Below, piece by piece: positions 4,040 through 61,546 of a stretch of DNA of 64,000 nt. A program made the translations under genes and the position numbers. The stretch covers positions 1,071,886 to 1,135,885 of the forward strand of contig NZ_CP116808.1 in assembly GCF_028464065.1 (NCBI RefSeq), written 5' to 3'. The stretch comes from Saprospira sp. CCB-QB6 (GTDB lineage Bacteria > Bacteroidota > Bacteroidia > Chitinophagales > Saprospiraceae). The notes under the pieces are model-generated. The model ran no database searches. It was not told the DNA's origin and saw nothing but the letters and a program-made list of their open reading frames with translations. Position 1 is the first letter of the stretch. The number at the start of each line of letters is the position of its first letter.

Positions 4040-5187
4040 TCCAAAGCCTCTTTGGGATAAACCGAACGCTGAATTACCTTCTCATAGTAGGCCTCATATT
4101 GGGGCAAAATATTTTCCATAGAAAACTTTTTGGCATGTTCTAGAGCCGCTTTCTGAAATGCTTGGTGCAAGGCTTCATCTTTAAGCAATTTGAGCGCATT
4201 GGCCGCCATTTCATCCACCTCCCCTAGTTCTGAACAAAAGCCCGTCACGCCATGCAGATTCACCTCGGGCAAGCCCCCCACATTAGTCGAAATCACGGGC
4301 ACCTCACAGGCCATAGCTTCTAGGGCCGAAAGCCCAAAACTCTCACTAGCCGAAGGCATAATAAAGAGATCAGAAACGGCCAAAAGCTCTTCCACGGCAT
4401 CTTGTTTACCCAAAAAGCGAATGTCTGCACAAAGGCCCAACTCTCTACACAACTGCTCCAATTTTTGCCGCTCTGGACCATCCCCCACCAAAAGTAGTTT
4501 AGCAGGTAATTCGGCCCGAACCTGCGCAAAAATCTTGATCACATCTTCTACCCGCTTCACTTTGCGGAAATTCGAGATATGAATCAAAATCTTCTCGCCA
4601 TGTGGGGCAATAGCTTTGCGAAAATGCTCTTTATTCGAGCGTTTAAAGCGATCAAAGTCAATAAAATTATAGATGACTTCAATATCTTGTTCTATCTCAA
4701 AATTCGCATAGGTATCCTGCCGCAAACTATCCGATACCGCCGTTACCCCATCCGATTTATTGATCGCAAAACTCACCACAGGCGCATAAACAGGTTGTTT
4801 GCCCACCAGCGTAATATCAGTCCCATGCAAGGTAGTCACAGTCGGAATATAAATCCCTTCTTGCAGCAATATTTTCTTGGCCATATAAGCCACCGAAGCA
4901 TGCGGCACCGCATAATGCACATGCAAAACATCCAACTCATCATATTTGACCACATCCACTAACTTAGAGGCCAAAGCCGTCTCATAAGGCGGATAATCAA
5001 AAAGCGGATAATCAGCAAAGCGGACCTCATTATAGACGATATTCTCATGAAATCCATCTAAGCGAGCCGGCGGCGCATAAGTAATAAAATGAACTTTATG
5101 GCCTTTATCGGCTAGCCCCTTGCCCAATTCTGTGGCAACCACACCGCTACCTCCATAGGTAGGATAACAAACTATTCCTATTTTCAT
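4036..5187 (-). CDS. bshA: N-acetyl-alpha-D-glucosaminyl L-malate synthase (GT4), bacillithiol biosynthesis.
   Basis: Near-colinear with Bacillus BshA (MKIGIVCYPTYGGSGVVATELGK...HVHYAVPHA...ILIHISNFRKVKRV...LLLVGDGPE...). Confidence 0.8.
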   Translation of the reverse strand: MKIGIVCYPTYGGSGVVATELGKGLADKGHKVHFITYAPPARLDGFHENIVYNEVRFADYPLFDYPPYETALASKLVDVVKYDELDVLHVHYAVPHASVAYMAKKILLQEGIYIPTVTTLHGTDITLVGKQPVYAPVVSFAINKSDGVTAVSDSLRQDTYANFEIEQDIEVIYNFIDFDRFKRSNKEHFRKAIAPHGEKILIHISNFRKVKRVEDVIKIFAQVRAELPAKLLLVGDGPERQKLEQLCRELGLCADIRFLGKQDAVEELLAVSDLFIMPSASESFGLSALEAMACEVPVISTNVGGLPEVNLHGVTGFCSELGEVDEMAANALKLLKDEALHQAFQKAALEHAKKFSMENILPQYEAYYEKVIQRSVYPKEALD

Positions 5188-5656: not shown

Positions 5657-6074
5657 AATCATTAGCCAACAATGGGGATTTTATATCCTGCTTTTACTTT
5701 TGCTTTTGGGCGGCAGCTACCTCAGCCGCTTACTCAAAATGGGGATTTTTGGCTGGGGACTTATTGCCTTTGGACTTTGGCAACTCAGCCGCTCCTTTCA
5801 ACTCCAATTAAGATTGGACCAAGAAGAAATTATCTTGGAACGGCAGATTTTTGGCCTAAATTTCAAACGCCGACAATGCACCTTCTCTCAGTTAGAGTGT
5901 TTGGACCATGGCTGCCGCCTTCTCTTTTATCAAAAGGGCCAAAAATGCCTAGAGCTAAGCTTTGAAGAAGAGGGCCTCCGCTGGACAGAAAAAGGCTATC
6001 AAAGTTTGTTGGCCCGCCCAAAAATAGGACAGGCGCTCTGGAGTAAAATTATGCTGCATTATGGCTTTCTCTAA
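5628..6074 (+). CDS. Hypothetical membrane protein (two TM helices plus a cytoplasmic domain).
   Basis: 148 aa ORF with a poly-Leu TM helix. Overlaps the preceding small gene by 29 nt; an internal Met at 5739 is an alternative start. Confidence 0.45.
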   Translation: MEKRLQLQDRIISQQWGFYILLLLLLLGGSYLSRLLKMGIFGWGLIAFGLWQLSRSFQLQLRLDQEEIILERQIFGLNFKRRQCTFSQLECLDHGCRLLFYQKGQKCLELSFEEEGLRWTEKGYQSLLARPKIGQALWSKIMLHYGFL

Positions 6075-6080
6075 AAATGG

Positions 6081-6195
6081 CCGAAGCGCAGAGCTTTCAT
6101 TTGGCCTAGCGATGCGGCGGGGTGGCCCGCAGGGCCGAGCGAGCAGCGAGCCCCAAAGCATAGCGCCGCAAGGCGAAGCCGCAGCGGAGGCCCCC
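6081..6195. repeat. Family A GC-rich repeat.
   Basis: ggcctagcgatgcggcggggtggcccgcagggccgagcgagcagcgagcc...gcaaggcgaagccgcagcggaggccc. Confidence 0.8.
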
Positions 6196-6354
6196 AAAAA
6201 TTAGTGCTGATATTGAAACTTAACATTTTCTTGAAACAGCATAAGCTATATTATAGCTAGGAAAAAGCGACCTTTGGCAGCAATTTAAGCCTTTAAGTTG
6301 GTTCTTCTTGGACCAAAAAAAGGATTTCATCGAATCAATTTACTTGCAGAACCT

Positions 6355-7842
6355 ATGGATATCAAAACCACTGCTGCCCCTTTTGAGGAGCATTTGAGCA
6401 AATGGCGCGAAAATGAAAAAACGGCTTTAGAACTTCAGCGTTTAGTTGGAGAACTTCGCTTTGATCGCTCCATTGAGATTGTCCTTTTCCGTCGAGATAT
6501 TTATGATAGTCGCCCCAGTCAAATTATTAACGACCACCTTTTTGCCAAAAACTACGTAAAGAAGCCGATTACAGCTCAGATGAGTTTGGCGATTACGGAG
6601 GCGATTGCCAAATTGGATCTAGCTCCGTCTAAGATTGACATTGGAAAATTGGCTACTCAATGGCTAAGTTTAGAGCAAAACGAAGGGCTAAGTCTAGAAG
6701 ATTTTGTAGCGGATCAGCTAAAAGATTTTGTAGGTCAGGCGGCTAAAGATGCTCAAAATGTTAGCCCTAAAGATGTGGTTGTTTACGGTTTTGGTCGCAT
6801 TGGTCGTTTGGCAGTTCGCATTCTTACTGAAATGATGGGGCGTGGAGAGCAGCTTCGTCTTCGTGCTATTGTATTGCGTCCTCGTAAAGGAGGTGATTTG
6901 GTAGCAGAATTGAACAAGCGTGCTTCTCTTTTGCGCAAAGATTCTGTGCATGGCAAATTGAGAGGAACCGTACAGGTTTTGCATGAGGAAAATCAGTTAA
7001 TTATCAATAGCTGTAAGGTACAGATTATCTATGCGGGACAGCCCGAAGATATTGACTACCGAGAGTATGGCATCAACGAGGCCCTAGTTATTGATAGTAC
7101 TGGAGCTTGGAAGGATCGTGAGGGCTTGAGCCGTCATCTTCGTCCTGGTGTTGATCGCGTTCTCTTTACTGCGCCTGCCAAAGGCATTAAAAATGTGGTT
7201 TACGGGATTAATCAAAACGATTTGGACCTTAATAGTGAGGAAGACAAAGTAGTTTGTGCGGCTTCTTGTACCACCAATGCCATTGCGCCTGTGCTCAAGG
7301 TCCTCAATGACAATTTTGGGATTGAAAAAGGCCATATGGAAACCATCCATGCTTATACGAGCTCTCAGAATTTGTTGGACAACTACCACAAAAAAGAGCG
7401 TCGTGGACGTGGAGCGGCAACCAATATGGTCATTACTTCTTCTGGAGCAAGTTCTGCCTTAAAAGAAGTATTGCCTGCTTTGACGGGTAAAATTACGGGT
7501 TCATCTGTACGCGTACCTATTCCCGATGGTTCTGTGGCGATTATGACCCTCAACTTAGACAAGGCCATCAGTCTAGATGAGCTCAATCAAGCGATGCGTC
7601 ATGCGTCTTTGCATGGTGATCTTTTTGAGCAAATTCAGTACTCTACCTCTAAAGAATTTGTTTCTGCGGATGTAATTGGTGCTCAAGCTTGTTCGGTTTA
7701 TGATGCTCCTGCCAGCAAAATTTCTGCAGATGGCAAAACCATTACCATTTATGTTTGGTATGATAACGAATATGGTTATACTCGCCAAGTGCTTCGTCTA
7801 GCCAAATATGTGAGCCAAGTACGTCGCTACCACTACTACTAG
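6355..7842 (+). CDS. gap: Glyceraldehyde-3-phosphate dehydrogenase with an N-terminal extension of about 140 aa.
   Basis: NAD-binding VVVYGFGRIGRLAVR and catalytic ASCTTNAIAP motifs. ATG at 6355 chosen over the upstream TTG at 6298 in the ORF track. Confidence 0.8.
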   Translation: MDIKTTAAPFEEHLSKWRENEKTALELQRLVGELRFDRSIEIVLFRRDIYDSRPSQIINDHLFAKNYVKKPITAQMSLAITEAIAKLDLAPSKIDIGKLATQWLSLEQNEGLSLEDFVADQLKDFVGQAAKDAQNVSPKDVVVYGFGRIGRLAVRILTEMMGRGEQLRLRAIVLRPRKGGDLVAELNKRASLLRKDSVHGKLRGTVQVLHEENQLIINSCKVQIIYAGQPEDIDYREYGINEALVIDSTGAWKDREGLSRHLRPGVDRVLFTAPAKGIKNVVYGINQNDLDLNSEEDKVVCAASCTTNAIAPVLKVLNDNFGIEKGHMETIHAYTSSQNLLDNYHKKERRGRGAATNMVITSSGASSALKEVLPALTGKITGSSVRVPIPDGSVAIMTLNLDKAISLDELNQAMRHASLHGDLFEQIQYSTSKEFVSADVIGAQACSVYDAPASKISADGKTITIYVWYDNEYGYTRQVLRLAKYVSQVRRYHYY

Positions 7843-8025: not shown

Positions 8026-8511
8026 ATGATGTATCCTTATATTTTCTCTTGTTTTATCTGCCTTTGGAGTTTTCCGCTTTGGGCACAGTTGCAGCCTTTG
8101 CCTGAAGAAGGAGGGCAATTAGTTTTAGCGCATGATAGTATTTTTTATTTGGCTCCCCAAGGAAGTTATTACTATAGATCGGGTCAATTTTTCCTTTCGA
8201 ATAGTTCGATAGATAAAGGGCTCCAGTTGGAACAGCTAGCTTGGGGTGTCCAAGAGCGGTACATTTTGGCTTTGAGCCAAAATTTTCGGGCTGGCTACTG
8301 GGCCAAGGATTTGGACCAAAGCGAGGCCCTGCTCGAACAAAAAAAAGCCGAAAGCTGGCAGAGCTTTCGGCTTTTACTTCCTGCTTATGAGGATGCTTAT
8401 ATCTATAGTATATTAGAAAGGGGTAATCAGCTATACCTTTGTATATATATAGATGGGCTGCATTATCTGCAACTTATTGAGGTAGGGCTGCAGCCTCTTT
8501 CTCTAGAATAG
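8026..8511 (+). CDS. Hypothetical secreted protein.
   Basis: Signal peptide (...FPLWAQ). 3' end converges on and overlaps the FMO gene by 38 nt. Confidence 0.45.
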   Translation: MMYPYIFSCFICLWSFPLWAQLQPLPEEGGQLVLAHDSIFYLAPQGSYYYRSGQFFLSNSSIDKGLQLEQLAWGVQERYILALSQNFRAGYWAKDLDQSEALLEQKKAESWQSFRLLLPAYEDAYIYSILERGNQLYLCIYIDGLHYLQLIEVGLQPLSLE

Positions 8512-9811
8512 AGCGATAAGTACTGGTATCTACGCAGAAAGGCATATTATCTTGTTTAAGGTAGGTATAACCTGCGGTCATATCGGGATTTGGACCAGTC
8601 TTTTTCTTTTTAAACTCGAGCGCTTCAGGACAAGCTTGATTAAGTCCAGTAATAAAGTTTGCGACTAGTCGAGCTTGTTCTGCGCGACCTTCCCAGCCTA
8701 GCCCAACAGCTTCCACCATTCCCAGAACGAAGAGATTATCATATTCGGGATGAAACATATTGAGATAGAGTTCGGGGGCTCGGCCTTGCCAGTTTAGCTC
8801 TTTTTTATCAATAAACGGGTAATCTAGTTTGTAGCCAGTGGCTAGCATGAGCATATCATACTCTTCTTTTTGACCATCTTTAAAATAGACTATTTGTCCC
8901 TCAAACTTTTCGACATCGCCACGGATAGTAATATCGCCTTGGCCAATATGTTGTAAGATAAGGGTATTCATTACGGGCCGAGACTCATAAACCTTATGGT
9001 CTGGGGCTGGGAATCCAAAATTTTGGAGATCGCCAACTACCCACTTGAGAAGTTTTCCTCCAATCCATTGTTGTAAGGGGCGAGGCAGGCGCCATTTTCC
9101 TCCCAAGGTATCGGAGGGTTTACCCATAATATACTTGGGCACAAAATAGTAGCCTCTACGGACAGAGACATCTACTTTTGGTGAACGGTGAGCAGCATCC
9201 ACGGCAATATCGCAACCGCTATTTCCCGCTCCAATAATGAGTACTCGTTTATCTTCAAAAATGGCGGCATTCTTATATTGCGAAGAGTGCCAAATTTCGC
9301 CCGAGAACTCTCCTTTAAACTTAGGGTAGCTTGGCTGGGCCAACATTCCATTGGCGATAATGAGTCCCTTGTATAGATGTGTAGAGCTTTGGCCATTTTG
9401 CTCTACCGTAATTTCCCAGCTTTCTCCTTTTCTTTCGGTCTTAAGCACCTTTGTTTGAAAAGAGTAGTGCGGGTAGAGATCAAACTCCTTAGCATAAGCC
9501 TGAAAATAGCTATACATTTCTCGATGAGAAGGGTAATCGGGCCAGTGTTCGGGCATTGGGAAATCCTTAAACTCCGTTTGCTTTTTAGAAGAAATCAGGT
9601 GAGCAGACTCGTAGACAATACTATTGGGATTATTAATATTCCATAATCCGCCAACATCTACACCTAGCTCAAAGCCATCAAAAGGAATTCCTTGTTCCTT
9701 AAGTGCTTTGGCCGCAGAAATCCCCGAAGGGCCGGCACCAATGATAGCATATTTTTCTTCTGTTTGCTCGAGGGGCTTGGGGCCGTATACATTATTCTTG
9801 CGATTGGGCAC
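8474..9811 (-). CDS. Flavin-containing monooxygenase (class B, NAD(P)-binding).
   Basis: IIGAGPSGISAAKAL and a second GAGNSG dinucleotide motif. 445 aa. Confidence 0.8.
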   Translation of the reverse strand: MPNRKNNVYGPKPLEQTEEKYAIIGAGPSGISAAKALKEQGIPFDGFELGVDVGGLWNINNPNSIVYESAHLISSKKQTEFKDFPMPEHWPDYPSHREMYSYFQAYAKEFDLYPHYSFQTKVLKTERKGESWEITVEQNGQSSTHLYKGLIIANGMLAQPSYPKFKGEFSGEIWHSSQYKNAAIFEDKRVLIIGAGNSGCDIAVDAAHRSPKVDVSVRRGYYFVPKYIMGKPSDTLGGKWRLPRPLQQWIGGKLLKWVVGDLQNFGFPAPDHKVYESRPVMNTLILQHIGQGDITIRGDVEKFEGQIVYFKDGQKEEYDMLMLATGYKLDYPFIDKKELNWQGRAPELYLNMFHPEYDNLFVLGMVEAVGLGWEGRAEQARLVANFITGLNQACPEALEFKKKKTGPNPDMTAGYTYLKQDNMPFCVDTSTYRSILEKEAAALPQ

Positions 9812-10060
9812 AAATATATCGTTTTAGTGAAAGCGTAAAATGCTAGGCATCTGCGCTATAATAGACTTTCGGCCAATAGATAACGGTTTTCAAAAAAAAA
9901 TGAAAATTTCTGCTGTTAAAAAAATCTAAGGAATTGAAAAAATCGTAATAGAAAGCTTTTTGAAAAAAATCATGCCTTTTAGGTAACAAAACATTAAGAA
10001 TTGTCATCAAGGAAATAGCTATCTTTATGAGGCTATTTTTTTTACCTAAAACTTAATCTA

Positions 10061-11174: not shown

Positions 11175-11333
11175 AGAGGAGCGAAGCGACTGGCCCAGCG
11201 CTGCGGAGGGGTGGCCGTAGGCCAGACCGAGCCAGCAAGCTGGCGAAGGGCCGAGCGAATAGTGAGCCCCGCAGCATAGCGGCGGCCGCCCTAGCCGAAG
11301 GCTAGCCGGCCGCGGGCCCCAAGGCATAAAAAA
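11175..11333. repeat. Family A GC-rich repeat.
   Basis: Shares the gccagaccgagccagcaagctggcgaagggccgagcgaatag core with other loci. Confidence 0.8.
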
Positions 11334-11393
11334 ATAACCAACCCTAATTATAGAATTGGTTATTATTATTTCTAGCGAAATAGGAAGTTTATC

Positions 11394-12647: not shown

Positions 12648-13114
12648 TATTTCTCGCTAATTTAAAGTTGTTCAAAAAATATGCAAAGGGCCAAATTGAT
12701 CTTTTGGGCGGCCTTCGCTTCATAAATGCAGCAAAGATATAAATTTCTACAAAGGAAGTTAAACCCACCCCTATTTTGCTAGAAAAAAAGCTGAGAGACA
12801 AGCGCCAAGCTATAAGGCGTCAAAGATTGGCTGAATCCTACCCAACTAGCAGCTAGACCTACTCAGCTAGCAGCCAGCCCTAACTTTTGCCCTTTTTCAT
12901 TTTGTTACATTATTTTCATTTTTAACAATTGGGGTCCAAAATCCTGTTTCTGCAGCAAAAAGGGGAAAGACAAAATTTTAAACAGCTTCTACAACTAAAT
13001 GCCCCGAAAATCACTTCCCCTTGATGAAAATTGCATAGAAAACGGCTGTAATTATGAATACCACATACAATTTGTGGCTTAAGCTGTAAAACACTATCAT
13101 TAGTTTCTTTTTTG

Positions 13115-13440
13115 GGGGCTGCCCCTCGCCTGCGGCTCGGGTCGGGCTGTGTCAGGGCTCGCTATTCGCTCGGCCCTTCGCCAGCAAGCTGGCTCGGTCT
13201 GGCCTACGGCCACCCTTTTCCATCCCTCAGCCGATGCAGGCCCTAGCCTGCATAAAAGCGGCAGGCTATCGCCTATTTAATATAAAGCGGGCTTTAGCCC
13301 GCTTTGGATTGGACCAATTTTGCCCAGACAGCCCGAGGGATTCCGCAAGGAATCCCGTAGAGGGGTGGGTGGGCGGGTCATCAGTACGGATGACGAGCGA
13401 AGCGAGGAATACCGCTTTGGGCCAACCAAAAGCAGAAAAG
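13115..13440. repeat. Family A repeat, long form. Begins with the terminal motif TTGGGGGCTGCCCC.
   Basis: Homologous over about 250 bp to 29240-29470 (ttggggctgcccc...gtcgggtcgggctgtg...cccttttccatccctcagcc...gcgggctttagcccgc...attggacc). Confidence 0.8.
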
Positions 13441-23064: not shown

Positions 23065-25362
23065 TTACTCAATTCTGGCCACAGTATTTACCGCATCCAA
23101 GTTTTTAATCGACATAATGATTTGCTTGAGCTGGTCCTTATTCTGTACCATCAAACTAATTCGGCCCTCAAAATGACCCTCAAGGCCCTCCATAGAAAAC
23201 GAGCGCATATTCACGCCCAACTCATTGGTAATAATATTGGACAACTGCTGCACTACGCCCATATCATCCATACCTGTAATCAAGAGATCGGCTACAAAAG
23301 AGGTTTCCCCAGACTCTATCCATTCCGCCTTTTTAATCCGATAGCCATAAGTAGCCTGCATATGCTCGGCATTGGGACAGGTCGTCCGATGAATCTTTAA
23401 GCCATGTTTAGAGGTCACATAAGCAAAGATATCATCTCCCATTACTGGATTGCAACAGGTCGCCAAGGAATAAGTATAGTTGCTCGCATCTTCGCCATCA
23501 ACAACCAATTTGGGCTTCTTAAACTGTTTGCGACTAGCCAAGGGGCGTAATCTCGGGCCCTTGGGCTTTTCCATCTGTGCAATCTCCTCTTTGGGCGTAT
23601 CTGCTAACTCTGGAAATAATTTTCCTTGCTCTTGCCGCAAGAGCTTAATCTCATTTAGATTGTACTGCCCCTGATAAATCCCATAATAAAGGGCTGGCCG
23701 ATTTTCTAAGCCATAGTACTTGACTAGAACATCTATATTCTCGTCGGCATCTAGCTTGAGGGTTTTGAGTTTTCGCTCTAGGGTTTCTTTCCCCAAAGCC
23801 CCCAGCTTCATGCGCTCCTCTCGAAGCGCTTGACGGATCTTATGCCTTGCCCGTCCAGTTTCTACCATCTTCAACCAACCCTCTGTTGGCTTTTGATTGG
23901 GACTTGTTACTACTCTCAACTGATCTCCATTTCGGAGGCGATAGCTAAGCGGAACAATCTTTTCGGCCACCTTGACCGCCTTACAATGGTAGCCCACTTC
24001 AGAGTGAATATCAAAAGCAAAATCTAGAGCCGTGGCCCCTTTCGGGAAAAAGCGAAGATCTCCCTTAGGCGTAAACACATAAACCTCCTCGGCAAAAAGA
24101 TTTGATTTGAAGCTGTTCAAAAACTCAATAGCATTGGTTTCTGGATTCTCCAGCATTTCTCTTGCTTTGGTTAGCCAACGCTCAAAAGTACTGCTTTGAC
24201 TAGACTTAACCCCCTTGTATTTCCAGTGTGCCGCAAAACCCATTTCAGCAATCTCATCCATCCGCTCAGAGCGAATCTGCACTTCGACAAAGCGCCCTTT
24301 GGGCCCCATAACCGTCGTATGCAAAGATTCATAGCCATTAGTCTTTGGCATAGATACCCAATCCTTTAGGCGCTCGGGCACAGGGGTATAATAATCTGTA
24401 ATGATGGAATAAACATTCCAACAAGCCGCCTTTTCTCGCTCAATGGGCAAATCTAAAACAATCCGAATAGCGAAGAAGTCATAAATTTCCTCAAAGGCTA
24501 ATTGCTTCTTCTTCAGCTTGTTGTTAATAGACGAAATGGACTTGGCCCGACCAAAGATGCGGGCCTTATAGCCTGCGGCTTCTACAGCCTTGCGCACAGG
24601 AGCAATAAAATCTTCGATATAGGCCTCTCGCTCGTCCTTAGTTTCTTGAAGTTTCTTGACAATATCTTGGTACTCTTCGGGCTCAATGATCTTCATGACC
24701 AAATCCTCCATTTCCGTTTTAATAGAATAGAATCCCAGACGGTGGGCCAAAGGAGCATAGATATAAGAGGTTTCTGAAGCAATTTTTAATTGCTTATGAT
24801 GAGGCATAGAGCCCAGCGTCCGCATATTATGTAGACGATCCGCCATCTTAATGAGCACGACCCGCACATCCTTGGCAATAGTCAACAGGATTTTTTTAAA
24901 GTTTTCGGCCTGTGGGCTACTCATCTTGTCGCCCTGTACATTATTGGCATTGGCAATACCCGAAAACTTGGTCAAGCCATCTACAATAGAGCTGACCTTT
25001 TGCCCAAACAAAAAGCGAATTTGAGCCAAAGTTACCTCCGTATCTTCAACCACATCATGCATAAGGGCCGCCTTAATTGAGCGAGGCGCCAAGCCCAACT
25101 CATCGGCACAAATACGAGCCACCTCTATCGGATGCAAAATGTAGGGTTCGCCCGACTTTCGTCTCTGCCCAGCATGCGCCCGAAAAGCTAAGGTAAATGC
25201 TAAGCGCATTTCTCTTTCTTCCTCTGGGGGATAATCCATTCGCAGGCTGCCAAGCAAATGCTCAAAAGCTGCATAAACTTCTTTTTCTTCCTCTGCATTG
25301 AGGTCAGCGGTGGGATCTGGCAAATTTAATGGCGCCAGCTTTTCTTCTATATAGTCTACCAT
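23065..25362 (-). CDS. relA: Bifunctional (p)ppGpp synthetase/hydrolase of the RelA/SpoT family.
   Basis: HD domain (RKSGEPYILHPIEVARI), synthetase domain, TGS and C-terminal ACT regions. 765 aa. Confidence 0.9.
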   Translation of the reverse strand: MVDYIEEKLAPLNLPDPTADLNAEEEKEVYAAFEHLLGSLRMDYPPEEEREMRLAFTLAFRAHAGQRRKSGEPYILHPIEVARICADELGLAPRSIKAALMHDVVEDTEVTLAQIRFLFGQKVSSIVDGLTKFSGIANANNVQGDKMSSPQAENFKKILLTIAKDVRVVLIKMADRLHNMRTLGSMPHHKQLKIASETSYIYAPLAHRLGFYSIKTEMEDLVMKIIEPEEYQDIVKKLQETKDEREAYIEDFIAPVRKAVEAAGYKARIFGRAKSISSINNKLKKKQLAFEEIYDFFAIRIVLDLPIEREKAACWNVYSIITDYYTPVPERLKDWVSMPKTNGYESLHTTVMGPKGRFVEVQIRSERMDEIAEMGFAAHWKYKGVKSSQSSTFERWLTKAREMLENPETNAIEFLNSFKSNLFAEEVYVFTPKGDLRFFPKGATALDFAFDIHSEVGYHCKAVKVAEKIVPLSYRLRNGDQLRVVTSPNQKPTEGWLKMVETGRARHKIRQALREERMKLGALGKETLERKLKTLKLDADENIDVLVKYYGLENRPALYYGIYQGQYNLNEIKLLRQEQGKLFPELADTPKEEIAQMEKPKGPRLRPLASRKQFKKPKLVVDGEDASNYTYSLATCCNPVMGDDIFAYVTSKHGLKIHRTTCPNAEHMQATYGYRIKKAEWIESGETSFVADLLITGMDDMGVVQQLSNIITNELGVNMRSFSMEGLEGHFEGRISLMVQNKDQLKQIIMSIKNLDAVNTVARIE

Positions 25363-25681
25363 AGTTTTATCCTTTTTTTGAGCCAGCCTGCTTATCCATA
25401 AATTTGGCGCTAGGCCGCCACTTTATTTTTTGCTTTGCCCTACAAACAAAAAATGTTTATCCCAAAGACAAGAGCGCCCCTCTTCTAACTTCTAAGCGCA
25501 GAGGACAGCAGCAGCAAAAAAGAAATTTAGAGAGAAGCCCTTGCTTTTCCAAACTTTTTTAAGCTATTGTCCAAGGATCAAAGAATTTAAACGCCTTCCA
25601 CAGGCTTAGTCCCCCCCTTTTAGCCCACCTTAAGCTATCAGCAAGCATCAAGTTAGCTTTTGTAAGGAACTCTAGACTTGA

Positions 25682-26073
25682 ATTTAGCTCTGACCCCAAG
25701 CCAGAGGCGTCTGTATCGTTACATTTAGCTCTGGCCCCAGGCCAGAGGCATCTGTATCCTTACATTTAGCTCTGGCCCCAGGCCAGAGGCATCTGTATCC
25801 TTACATTTAGCTCTGGCCCCAAGCCGGAGGCATCTGTATCGTTACATTTAGCTCTGGCCCCAAGCCGGAGGCATCTGTATCGTTACATTTAGCTCTGGCC
25901 CCAAGCCGGAGGCATCTGTATCGTTACATTTAGCTCTGGCCCCAGGCCAGAGGCATCTGTATCCTTACATTTAGCTCTGGCCCCAGGCCAGAGGCATCTG
26001 TATCCTTACATTTAGCTCTGGCCCCAGGCCAGAGGCATCTGTATCCTTACATTTAGCTCTGGCCTCAAGCTAA
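25682..26073. repeat. Tandem array of a 41-bp unit, about 9.5 copies (atttagctctggccccaggccagaggcatctgtatccttac).
   Basis: Read directly from the sequence. Two variant types in blocks (A,A / B,B,B / A,A,A) with a divergent first unit and a truncated last unit. Confidence 0.9.
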
Positions 26074-26266
26074 AAGAGAGTTTTAAGCAGACACTACAAA
26101 TAGATACAACCTACTTTATCAACATCATTAAAAACAGCATTAAAATATCTACGTAAACAGCAACTATTAAAAAGTTATAGTTTTTCCACCAAAAGTCTTG
26201 ACATTATAAATGTGTATACGTATATTTATAACGTAACTCCTTTTCATCACCTCAAGTTTTTATACT

Positions 26267-27250
26267 ATGATAGAAATTACAGGCTGGATTAAGACGGAAA
26301 ACTTCGTCTATACCATCACCAAAGACAACAAAAAGAAGATGTACCTTTTAGCTAAGGATCATGTTCACAAATTGACCGAAAAAGCCGCTTCGGATCCTGT
26401 CATTCAAGACATCCTCAACTTTATTCTGCCCGCTTATGATGACTTTCTTCTTCAGTACCGCAAGAATACCATCGATCAAAGAGGCTACCATCAAAAAACA
26501 GCAGCATTTGAAGCCCTAATTGCACAATTGTCCAGCGTTGAAATTCGCCGTTGGGATATTGAAATCCAAATGACTTATGATGTCATCACTAGCGATTACA
26601 ACCGACTCCTCCCCGATGGCAGAAAGCCCTTCCAAAAAGGGACCTACGATATGCGCATCGAGGCGGTCATGACTTTGGGCGACCTCTTGAGCAATGACCC
26701 TCAACTTCAGGGACTAGGCGCAACAGTCCTCGCTTTTGGCCAGCAACTAGAAGACCTCCGCAGCCAACAACAAGGCGTAGAAGGCAATACCGATGATAAT
26801 GTGGACGACTTGGAAAGCAAGCGCGAAGAACTCGCCATTGTGCTCTATGGCGCCTTTGCTCGCCTTTTGGCCCATTACTACCGTAACCCAAAACGGGTAG
26901 ACAACTTCTATGAGCTCAAGTATTTCCGCAGAAGCAAGAACAACAATACAGAGCAAGAAGAGGAAGACGATAATTACAGCCATTTTGAAGTCGAACTCAG
27001 CCCAGGCAGCAACCAAACCCAACTAGAAGGCCTCCTCCTCGGTGGCGAACGAATTCGATTGCAACATATCCGTGGCGCAGCAGTCCTCTACTACTTTTTG
27101 GCCCAAGCTAATGATAGCCCCGACCAACAGTATGAACTACTGCCCAATCAAATGATTGAAATTAACGTCCCTCTAGGACAACGCCTCATTGTTTTGGATA
27201 ATCCCAGCAATCAGAATGCAGTCATAGAGCTTGAACTACTCCCTAACTAG
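26267..27250 (+). CDS. Hypothetical protein, 327 aa.
   Basis: ORF with its own AT-rich upstream region and downstream terminator. No recognisable domain. Confidence 0.5.
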   Translation: MIEITGWIKTENFVYTITKDNKKKMYLLAKDHVHKLTEKAASDPVIQDILNFILPAYDDFLLQYRKNTIDQRGYHQKTAAFEALIAQLSSVEIRRWDIEIQMTYDVITSDYNRLLPDGRKPFQKGTYDMRIEAVMTLGDLLSNDPQLQGLGATVLAFGQQLEDLRSQQQGVEGNTDDNVDDLESKREELAIVLYGAFARLLAHYYRNPKRVDNFYELKYFRRSKNNNTEQEEEDDNYSHFEVELSPGSNQTQLEGLLLGGERIRLQHIRGAAVLYYFLAQANDSPDQQYELLPNQMIEINVPLGQRLIVLDNPSNQNAVIELELLPN

Positions 27251-27320: not shown

Positions 27321-27364
27321 GCCCCAAAAAACAAAGCGGCCTAGGAGAAATTCTCCTAGGCCGC
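27321..27364 (-). terminator. Rho-independent terminator for sppA (minus strand).
   Basis: Perfect palindrome gcggcctaggaga-aat-tctcctaggccgc with an A-run on the plus strand, which is a T-run on the minus strand. Confidence 0.65.
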
Positions 27365-27386
27365 TCGTTTTGGCAGCGCCTACGGC

Positions 27387-51860: not shown

Positions 51861-52042
51861 TCTTTAGAAATCTCTGAGACAGGCGGCGAAGCCGCCGCAT
51901 AGGAGCGCAGCGACTGGCTGAGGGATGCGCAGCAGTGGCGCAGAGCGCCAGACCCAGCCGCCTAAGGCGGCGCAGGGCCGAGCGAACAGCGAGCTGCGAG
52001 ACAGCCCGACCCGCCCACAGGGCGGGGCAGCCCCAAAATAGC
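51861..52042. repeat. Family A repeat ending GGGGCAGCCCCAAAA.
   Basis: Located inside a minus-strand operon between mvaD and the amidohydrolase gene. Confidence 0.8.
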
Positions 52043-59071: not shown

Positions 59072-59139
59072 AAAATTGTTTCTAATTAGGCCTTCAAGAT
59101 AATAACTTCTACTTAATAGGCCAAGTTTTTTCTTTTTTT

Positions 59140-59292
59140 GGGGCTGCCCCGCCCTTCGGTCGGGTCGGGCTCTCCGCAGCTCGCAGGTCTGCTCGGCCCT
59201 GCGCGGGCTTTGCCCGCTGGGTCTGCCGCCTTCGGCGGCCCTGCTCCCATCCCTCAGCCTGCGGCCCTTCGGGCCTGCAAAACGCAGTTGGA
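59140..59292. repeat. Family A repeat starting TTGGGGCTGCCCC.
   Basis: Located within a minus-strand operon between djlA and bactofilin. Confidence 0.8.
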
Positions 59293-61127: not shown

Positions 61128-61268
61128 GGGGCGCAAATGGCCCAGCGCTGCGCAGCGGTGGCCGCAGGCCAGACCCAGCGGGCAAAGCCCGCGCAGGGCC
61201 GAGCAGACCTGCGAGCCGCGAAGCATAGCGGCGGCCAAGCTAGCCTTTGGCTAGCTGGCCGCGGGCCC
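61128..61268. repeat. Family A GC-rich repeat.
   Basis: gcgctgcgcagcggtggccgcaggccagacccagcgggcaaagcccgcgcagggccgagcagacc. Confidence 0.8.
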
Positions 61269-61546
61269 CTAAAGAACAAAATAAGGAGCTGCTTTAAGCC
61301 TTTGGAAACAGAAAAATAACAAAGATAAAGGAGGAGCAGCTAAAAAATCAGTTATTTTACTTTTTAGGGAATCGTTTCGTTCCCGAACGCATTAAAAAAC
61401 GCCTAAAAGGGGCAAATTTATTAGTCTGCTGCTGCCAAAAGGTCATTTTTAAATGAGTTCCTCGTATTTTCAGCCTCAACTCCTAATTTAACTGAAGAAC
61501 TTACTGGGCAGTGCGGCCAGAGGTTTAATTTAATCTAAGATATCTT

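Follow-up and report, generated by a model that had tools for sequence, protein, structure and literature searches.

The DNA analyzed here is a stretch of 64,000 nucleotides from the chromosome of Saprospira sp. CCB-QB6 (contig NZ_CP116808.1), called the window below. It contains a 41-bp tandem repeat array in the intergenic region between two divergently oriented genes, relA/spoT on the minus strand and, on the plus strand, a gene for a 327-aa protein without assigned function. The new aspect of this array is that its link to the gene family of the 327-aa protein has outlasted the complete replacement of the unit sequence, with the period fixed and with one half of the unit under constraint. 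The locus is organized as follows:

23065-25362, minus strand: gene for a bifunctional RelA/SpoT protein (Pfam HD_4, RelA_SpoT, TGS, ACT_4), a neighbour outside the module described below
25522-25553, minus strand: putative relA promoter, TTTG-N20-TAAATTTC, deduced from a published consensus (PMC9723704)
25682-26073, plus strand: 41-bp tandem array of nine full units and a truncated tenth, delimited by in-phase cutting and Tandem Repeats Finder (TRF)
26074-26197, plus strand: AT-rich linker between array and promoter, with TACGTAAAC (at about 26153) and TTAAAAAG (26167-26174), two blocks conserved in an alignment of nine loci and presumably functional
26198-26228, plus strand: predicted core promoter of the 327-aa gene, either TTGACA-17 nt-TATATT (11 of 12 consensus matches) or the Bacteroidota form TTG-N20-TATATTTA
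26267-27250, plus strand: 327-aa gene, function unassigned, no Pfam match, the conserved partner of the array
27334-27366, no strand assigned: strong hairpin (15 pairs, with T-runs) that separates the 327-aa gene from the convergent sppA, likely a bidirectional terminator at the end of the module

TRF detected a single long array in the window (25682-26070, period 41, 9.5 copies, 96% matches, 0 indels, score 673), and cutting the sequence in phase placed the end of the tenth unit near 26073. Both agree with the initial annotation of this DNA, which had described about 9.5 units of 41 bp at 25682-26073. Its block layout was reproduced exactly: a hybrid first unit (unit 0, with G12A, A18, A22, G28, and G37) is followed by units of the types A,A,B,B,B,A,A,A and by the truncated last unit. 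Altogether, 8 unit matches were observed, compared with 0 expected from 100 shuffles. The A and B blocks fit recent local duplication or unequal exchange, in line with the recent expansion by unequal recombination that had been proposed.

Each unit consists of a variable palindrome (positions 7-25) and a conserved asymmetric motif, CATCTG.ATC.TTAC at positions 27-41 continued by ATTT at positions 1-4. The asymmetric motif holds a -7-like box, TACATTTA, that is oriented toward the 327-aa open reading frame (ORF). Type A units (CTCTGGCC-CCA-GGCCAGAG) can form a stem of 8 bp, and type B units (CTCTGGCC-CCA-AGCCGGAG) one of 7 pairs, of which one is T.G. The calculated folding energies of the DNA are -8.8 kcal/mol for type A and -5.7 kcal/mol for type B.

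The array is 320-711 bp upstream of the relA/spoT start codon (25362), and 194 bp separate its end from the start of the plus-strand ORF at 26267, as had been noted. No ORF of at least 60 aa crosses it; the array is non-coding and lies upstream of the promoter. Further copies are absent from the 64-kb window, and each 22-kb orthologous locus has one copy. An inverted-repeat search of 25363-26266 returned only the unit palindromes and dyads of the promoter region, without terminal inverted repeats. No terminator-like site was reported inside 25682-26073, and an array of intrinsic terminators was rejected because the hairpins are followed by GCATCTG and not by a T-run. CRISPR arrays likewise consist of direct repeats with a palindromic core and break short-read assemblies, but the units of the window array abut head to tail at an exact 41-bp spacing, without spacers and without cas genes nearby, so that the array is not a CRISPR array, in agreement with the initial annotation. 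Apart from this array, TRF listed two short tandem repeats in the window (21 bp x 2.2 and 15 bp x 2.3, at 12837-12882 and 4989-5024).

Linkage of the array to the 327-aa gene family

RelA of the window is 99% identical to RelA of Saprospira grandis. Orthologous relA-type loci were compared from three S. grandis genomes, DSM 2844 (L012), Lewin (L013), and CP110854 (L014), and from a closer metagenome-assembled genome (MAG) that is represented by two assemblies (L015 and L019). In all of them a 41-bp array separates relA from the 327-aa gene. The locus is on the chromosome, with synteny kept across strains (records of 4.2-4.4 Mb). Because orthologous loci share the array at the same place, it is real and old, and an assembly artefact, the objection raised initially, is unlikely, given that three S. 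grandis genomes sequenced independently have an array of the same phase at this position. The copy number is 9.5 in the window, 6.8-7.5 in the three S. grandis genomes, and 5.5 in the MAG, where numbers from short-read contigs are to be taken as unreliable. The comparison across strains that had been suggested thus revealed that counts as well as unit types differ between relatives. The short-read metagenome contigs L010 and L011 end at the array or just within it.

Homologs of the 327-aa protein (36-89% identical) were also found in other genomic contexts:

L016: protein 73% identical to that of the window; located beside cysS and lacking relA; 9.9 copies of a 41-bp unit, TAAACAACTCTTTAGAGCTATATGCATTTCGCAGAATACCC, with the array end about 170 bp ahead of the ATG
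L020: same paralog as in L016, with identical flanks and gene; next to cysS; 41 bp x 14.9, five internal units being the sole difference from L016
L017/L018: protein 79% identical to that of the window and 89% to that of L016; different downstream genes; contigs start within a relA-type array about 205 bp upstream of the ATG
L022: protein 43% identical; contig start; 41-bp array of at least 3.9 copies; core CTGTGGC-G-GCCACAG
L023: protein 36% identical; from another metagenome; 4.8 copies of a 42-bp unit with the core TTGCGCAA, 258 bp ahead of the ATG

Each of these genes has a 41/42-bp array, or a contig break inside one, 170-440 bp upstream, and the same was found for every locus of the family with enough upstream sequence. 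relA is absent from the array-plus-gene loci L016/L020, L017, L022, and L023, and the relA-type units themselves occur in a second genomic context, L017. Because the array follows the 327-aa gene into loci without relA, relA is best regarded as an incidental neighbour in this lineage and the 327-aa gene as the partner with which the array is conserved. The assignment to relA/spoT with which the initial annotation had started was thus not supported.

Five sequence types of the array were examined, namely the relA type (window, L012-L015, and L019), L017/L018, L016/L020, L022, and L023. The period is 41, 41, 41, and 42 bp across array types. The similarity of the consensus units between types, in any rotation and on either strand, did not exceed the chance level given by shuffles, except for a marginal match between L014 and L022 (p ~0.03). 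The only motif common to four array types was ATTT, which was also reached by 189 of 2000 shuffles. Thus, it is the architecture that has been kept: units with a dyad each, arranged in tandem at a conserved period, upstream of genes of this family. When 278 kb were scanned for arrays with a period of at least 25 bp and at least 3.5 copies, all arrays were linked to the family except for one 168-bp array in L024. A scan of a genome collection with the core of the window units, GCTCTGNCCCCANGCCNGAGGC, gave only nine single chance matches in unrelated high-GC genomes, and this core is strain-specific, so that the scan is uninformative on other arrays. No relevant literature was found on tandem repeats in Saprospira or on bacterial 41-bp tandem repeats.

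Other repeats are present around some of these loci. A family of REP-like GC-rich hairpins (e.g., GGGCCTGTAGGTTGAAACCTACAGC and CCCTAGGGCCAAGGCCCTAGGCTAT) lies on both sides of the L016 module, at 5900-6660 and 8240-8960, with copies that are 98-100% identical, and short related matches occur in the window at 11192-11341, 13112-13306, 51881-52037, 59124-59275, and 61139-61284. In L023 (1-368, 2301-3424, and 5177-5258) and L024 (879-3117), tandem repeats of 126, 167-168 (= 4 x 42), and 42 bp surround the distant homolog; they contain TTAATGG runs and CCCTGAAAGGG hairpins. REP or BIME elements were rejected as an explanation of the array itself, the units of which all point the same way, follow each other directly every 41 bp, and have no other copies in the window.

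The 327-aa protein is composed of an N-terminal bundle of long helices, an acidic disordered linker, and a C-terminal PirA-like jelly-roll, and has a pI of 4.9. Its close relatives form 12 clusters at 90% identity, and a profile search without a word index retrieved 776 cluster representatives at 50% identity, mostly of about 320 aa, 634 of them with E <= 1e-10. All family members that have names are called 'hypothetical' and come from Saprospira or from Bacteroidota MAGs; at least three of them, SGRA_0463, SGRA_0725, and the copy next to relA, are encoded by S. grandis Lewin alone. Look-ups for exact protein matches returned no record for RelA and the 327-aa protein of the window or for the proteins of Saprospira sp. 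CCB-QB6, which include the paralog P0146. Searches of Pfam, NCBIfam, PHROGs, PADLOC, and PDB sequences returned nothing for the protein, Pfam gave no significant domain for ten distant or longer family members, and a second homology search with the family alignment added no annotation. In fold searches, the C-terminal domain had only a generic jelly-roll/cupin match and the helical domain was uninformative; a helix-turn-helix (HTH), ParB, or other DNA-binding fold was not found. Neither relatives of the protein nor the array motif were found in viral and plasmid collections. Binding of the protein to its own array was rejected on the basis of its charge, its fold, and the fact that protein and array type do not co-vary.

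Several members of the family have a mosaic appearance. The ORF of the window is 96-98% identical at the nucleotide level to that of L015 (window 26247-27146 versus L015 6097-7000), against a background of 85-92% in flanking DNA and an identity of only 60% at four-fold sites of relA. This is suggestive of a recent recombination or transfer event between the lineages that was confined to the ORF. In L017, the promoter and the gene are of the L016 type (89% at the amino acid level) and the array and proximal flank are of the window/relA type, with a junction about 165 bp upstream of the ATG (L017 1-265 compared with L016 7025-7237 and window 26051-26266). The N-terminal half of the protein P0142 is about 45-50% identical to that of P0137, and the linker and C-terminal jelly-roll are nearly identical (alignment columns 223-326), a pattern that could reflect either the shuffling of domains among paralogs or the chimeric nature of a metagenome contig.

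These mosaics, together with the several paralogs per S. grandis genome and the ability of the whole array to self-fold as a long quasi-palindrome (z -8 to -10), would be expected if the array were a recombination-promoting element, with the palindromes as hot spots (hairpin or cruciform formation, fork stalling) that drive the exchange of promoters, genes, and domains among paralogs in the manner of antigenic variation. However, neither silent cassettes nor a recombinase gene were seen, the dyads of L016 and L023 are too short for extrusion, and the mosaics could also stem from ordinary homologous recombination or from chimeric metagenome contigs. In addition, the conserved asymmetric motif would be left unexplained, and we consider this possibility improbable.

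Conserved and variable parts of the repeat unit

Comparison of the relA-type units revealed very different rates of change in their two halves. The asymmetric half is invariant at 17 of its 19 positions in six lineages. The palindrome, in contrast, has been rewritten: it is CTCTGGCC-CCA-GGCCAGAG in the window, CTCCGGGGATTCCCCAGAG in L014 and L012, CCGTGGGGATTCCCCACAG in L013, and CTAGGGGGATTCCCCCAAG in L017, and a further variant, CTCTGGCGTGGCGCCGGAG, occurs in unit 1 of L012, in the last unit of L014, and in L011. Between the window and S. grandis, four-fold sites are 55-58% identical in relA and 43% in the 327-aa gene, and intergenic DNA outside of the array is 60-65% identical, i.e., neutral sites are near saturation between the lineages compared. 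The asymmetric half of the unit is thus constrained well beyond neutrality, because 17 of 19 positions are invariant while four-fold sites and intergenic DNA have diverged.

The palindrome has retained its symmetry during this turnover. In the relA-type dyad, 86% of the cells are paired, compared with 72.6% in shuffles, and none of 500 shuffles reached the observed value. Double-sided changes were found in four of the eight palindrome pairs (e.g., at pair 13-19, 10 units have GC and 7 have CG), and the covariation score is 0.263 versus 0.094 in shuffles. A symmetric double change, from CTCT-TT-AGAG to CTGT-TT-ACAG, is also present in the L016-type dyad. L016-type and L023-type units form short loopless dyads without a significant fold (z -0.47 and +0.90), compared with z -2.96 for type A. 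As two of the four array types thus lack a stable hairpin, the property common to the units is dyad symmetry and not hairpin stability. The mismatches that remain in the stems favour neither strand: T.G on the plus strand is found in type B units of the window, in unit 1 of L012, and in unit 7 of L014, and a plus-strand C-A, wobble-compatible on the minus strand only, in most units of L012 and L014.

The majority of the S. grandis units contain a GATC site (TCTGGATCG), with 1 to 4 exceptions per array (L012-L014 arrays, 9354-9661). The units of the window lineage have TCTGTATCC/G and no GATC, and for this reason a role as a methylation site cannot be general.

In the three S. grandis loci, the intergenic region (9179-10000) is exactly 822 bp long in each strain and has an equal number of unit positions. 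Despite this equal length, the units were homogenised to a different variant in each strain; their turnover went by way of conversion and left the length unchanged. For example, the Lewin array consists of seven near-identical units that are distinct from those of DSM 2844; such homogenisation within a strain has the appearance of concerted evolution.

The array falls under the definition of an intergenic variable-number tandem repeat (VNTR), i.e., non-coding units of 10-100 bp with a copy number that differs between strains. It might thus be a neutral or selfish minisatellite that evolves in concert and hitch-hikes with a gene cassette, with an inherited period and with a symmetry that arose via hairpin-templated quasi-palindrome mutation. 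The block-wise variants, the homogenisation in Lewin versus DSM 2844, the differences in copy number (L016 and L020 differ by five internal units only), and the repeat-rich setting, with REP-like elements on both flanks of L016, are all compatible with this explanation, as is the fact that no trans factor was identified. Arrays of this kind are easily lost, yet arrays of five independent sequence types are found with the gene, even where the proteins are only 36% identical; one half of the unit has diverged far less than neutral sites and the intergenic DNA nearby; and the three S. grandis strains have kept the 822-bp length despite unit turnover. A neutral origin is therefore rather unlikely in our view, although it deserves to be taken seriously.

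Predicted promoters and possible transcripts around the array

The predicted promoter of the 327-aa gene (TTGACA-17-TATATT, 26198-26226) contains the elements CTTG and T.ATA.TT.TAACG, which are invariant or nearly so in nine loci, down to 36% protein identity. In the Bacteroidota promoter consensus, the sigma-A -7 box TAnnTTTG spans -12 to -5 (PMC9723704). Because the predicted conserved promoter lies between the array and the ATG in nine loci, the array is placed upstream of it, at about -125 to -515, and would be outside of the mRNA unless a promoter exists further upstream. Classical phase variation via promoter spacing, which had been named as one option, is unlikely, as the array is outside of the -33/-7 interval.

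On the other side of the array, the putative relA promoter would give a leader of about 155 nt, and the array would thus be situated between two divergent promoters, upstream of both. A 55-bp block of the array-relA interval (25516-25570) that holds this putative promoter is identical in all lineages amid diverged intergenic DNA. The start codon of relA is ambiguous (window 25363-25395): the protein has 776 aa in other assemblies, with a start 33 nt upstream, versus the 765 aa used here (P0001). The neighbouring genes encode, in addition to RelA/SpoT, an aminotransferase, SppA, an enoyl-CoA hydratase, and a LuxR-type regulator.

The -7 box is also matched within the units themselves, on the gene-oriented strand, by TACATTT(A/G) in each relA-type unit and by TACCTTTG in each L023-type unit. 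TAnnTTT[GA] occurred in 1.3% of the shuffled units of the relA type and in 4.6% of those of the L023 type. None of the units has it on the opposite strand. A start site set by such a unit-borne box would fall within the 5' arm of the palindrome, i.e., the dyad would be at the usual place of an operator.

Transcription from unit-borne boxes would be one way to generate a repeat RNA, with the array in a long 5' leader or in a separate non-coding RNA and with functional hairpins in each unit. Covariation in the relA-type palindrome, with its four double-changed pairs, and the stable hairpin of type A are both compatible with such an RNA. However, a scan of the window with Rfam at the gathering threshold returned only three tRNAs located elsewhere, and a permissive scan of 25300-26320 gave one chance match to a miRNA (E = 0.2). 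Furthermore, the conserved promoter is downstream of the array, the wobble-compatible strand differs among units, L016-type and L023-type units lack a significant fold, and the start placed by the -7 box of a unit would fall in the 5' arm of the palindrome. Small RNA (sRNA) repeats, also among the options listed initially, are thus a weak proposal, and a role of the array as RNA is in our estimation of low probability.

Possible functions of the array

Intergenic tandem units of 40-100 bp with strain-variable copy number are known as mycobacterial MIRUs and pneumococcal BOX elements, and some of them affect the expression of neighbouring genes. In those cases one unit family is spread over many unrelated loci, whereas here different units share one period and one gene family. 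Another system for comparison are the Fis sites upstream of E. coli rrnB P1, degenerate dyads that are phased every three to four helical turns and tune a strong promoter. They comprise three non-identical sites, in contrast to the homogenised tandem array described here, and we know of no factor equivalent to Fis in Saprospira.

In sopC of plasmid F, 12 direct repeats of 43 bp each contain a 16-bp inverted repeat that is bound by SopB (PMC3177203). The likeness to the array is close, with about 10 direct repeats of about 42 bp, no spacers, a dyad core in each unit, and a period of about four turns. This raises the possibility of a centromere-like site for partition or chromosome organisation that is bound by a ParB-like protein. 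However, sopC lies beside sopAB on a plasmid, whereas the array is at a syntenic chromosomal locus without parA/parB or other par genes nearby; the adjacent protein is acidic and has neither a ParB nor an HTH fold; several different arrays exist per genome; and the protein family was not found on plasmids or viral contigs. A centromere-like function is thus very hard to credit. A replication origin or iteron array was also rejected: there is no initiator gene, the cumulative GC skew declines steadily without a switch, and a single 8-of-9 DnaA-box-like string was found near relA.

Within the Bacteroidota, the BrickBuilt elements of P. gingivalis consist of a 23-nt unit between a leader and a tail with inverted-repeat ends, as in transposable elements of the miniature inverted-repeat type (MITEs), and occur in 19 dispersed copies that contain promoter elements (PMC4596501). 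Like the array, they are spacer-less and strictly intergenic, lie at distances of a few hundred bp from the flanking genes, and vary between strains, and their promoter elements may have a counterpart in the -7-like boxes of the units. They differ in that they are not linked to one gene family; the array has units of 41-42 bp and no terminal inverted repeats, and its unit differs with each paralog but is tied to one family. In its outline the array resembles BrickBuilt, and in its mode of working it would be most like a phased upstream binding array or a protein-loading array of the sopC type.

We tentatively favour the view that the array is a cis-acting upstream element that controls the 327-aa gene and is bound by a protein or by RNA polymerase, although this view may well turn out to be wrong. 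It is based on the linkage to the gene, the fixed period, the selection on half of the unit, the retained dyad, the promoter downstream of the array, and the gene-oriented -7-like box, as well as on the precedent of BrickBuilt with its promoter elements in the same phylum (PMC4596501). The module would consist of the 41-42-bp tandem array, the AT-rich linker, a strong promoter, the 327-aa gene, and the terminator. We propose that a trans-acting factor binds once per unit. Candidates are a dimeric DNA-binding protein, a DNA-binding protein that reads structure or shape, and sigma-A RNA polymerase itself via the -7-like TACATTT(A/G). As 41-42 bp correspond to about four helical turns, the bound factors would be arranged on roughly one face of the DNA, and the number of units would set the dose of the factor beside the promoter. 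Such a platform might activate, silence, or tune expression. Of the options named initially (contingency locus, protein-binding array, and sRNA repeats), the protein-binding array thus still is the best reading, and promoter-spacing phase variation and sRNA repeats were not borne out. CRISPR, neutral minisatellite, RNA hairpin, and centromere-like explanations all fit worse than a cis-acting array.

Several observations weigh against this view. The palindrome core varies among strains of one species (GGGGATTCCCC, GGCCCCAGGCC, and GGCGTGGCGCC), which is odd for a sequence-specific operator, and different paralogs would need different factors or, alternatively, a factor that reads shape. The distance between array and promoter is variable (about 100 to 365 bp). 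The -7-like box of the units is not paired with a -33 TTG, the corresponding string reads TGCATTT in L016 units and TGGATTT in L022 units, with a G replacing the critical A at position 2, and the motif was defined after the data had been viewed and is treated as a lead only. No candidate binding protein is encoded beside the module in any context examined, and the adjacent protein is acidic and lacks a DNA-binding fold. It also does not co-vary with the array type, as the L017 protein is 89% identical to that of L016 and its array is of the relA type. Finally, only five independent array types underlie the linkage, and arrays in short-read contigs may be collapsed, which affects the copy numbers.

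A more far-reaching version of the cis-regulatory view would be a two-part system, so far unrecognised, that is common to the Bacteroidota. In such a system, an array phased at about four turns, free to turn over in sequence but keeping its period, dyad, and -7-like box, would nucleate RNA polymerase or a nucleoid protein and give each paralog a heritable expression state that is tunable by copy number; the array might, in addition, be a hot spot for the shuffling of arrays, promoters, and C-terminal domains. This generalisation is speculative and we regard it as unlikely.

Tandem repeats in bacterial intergenic regions are usually seen as typing markers or as junk. Here, the period and the architecture are conserved down to 36% protein identity, and the sequence is not. 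As the relA neighbourhood is coincidental, no role in the stringent response is to be inferred. With a resizable array, a mutable dyad, and one strong promoter as the output, the locus offers a tractable case for what a bacterial minisatellite does, and the unannotated family of 776 clusters that it accompanies, helix bundles joined to a PirA-like jelly-roll in predatory and gliding Bacteroidota, is worth study.

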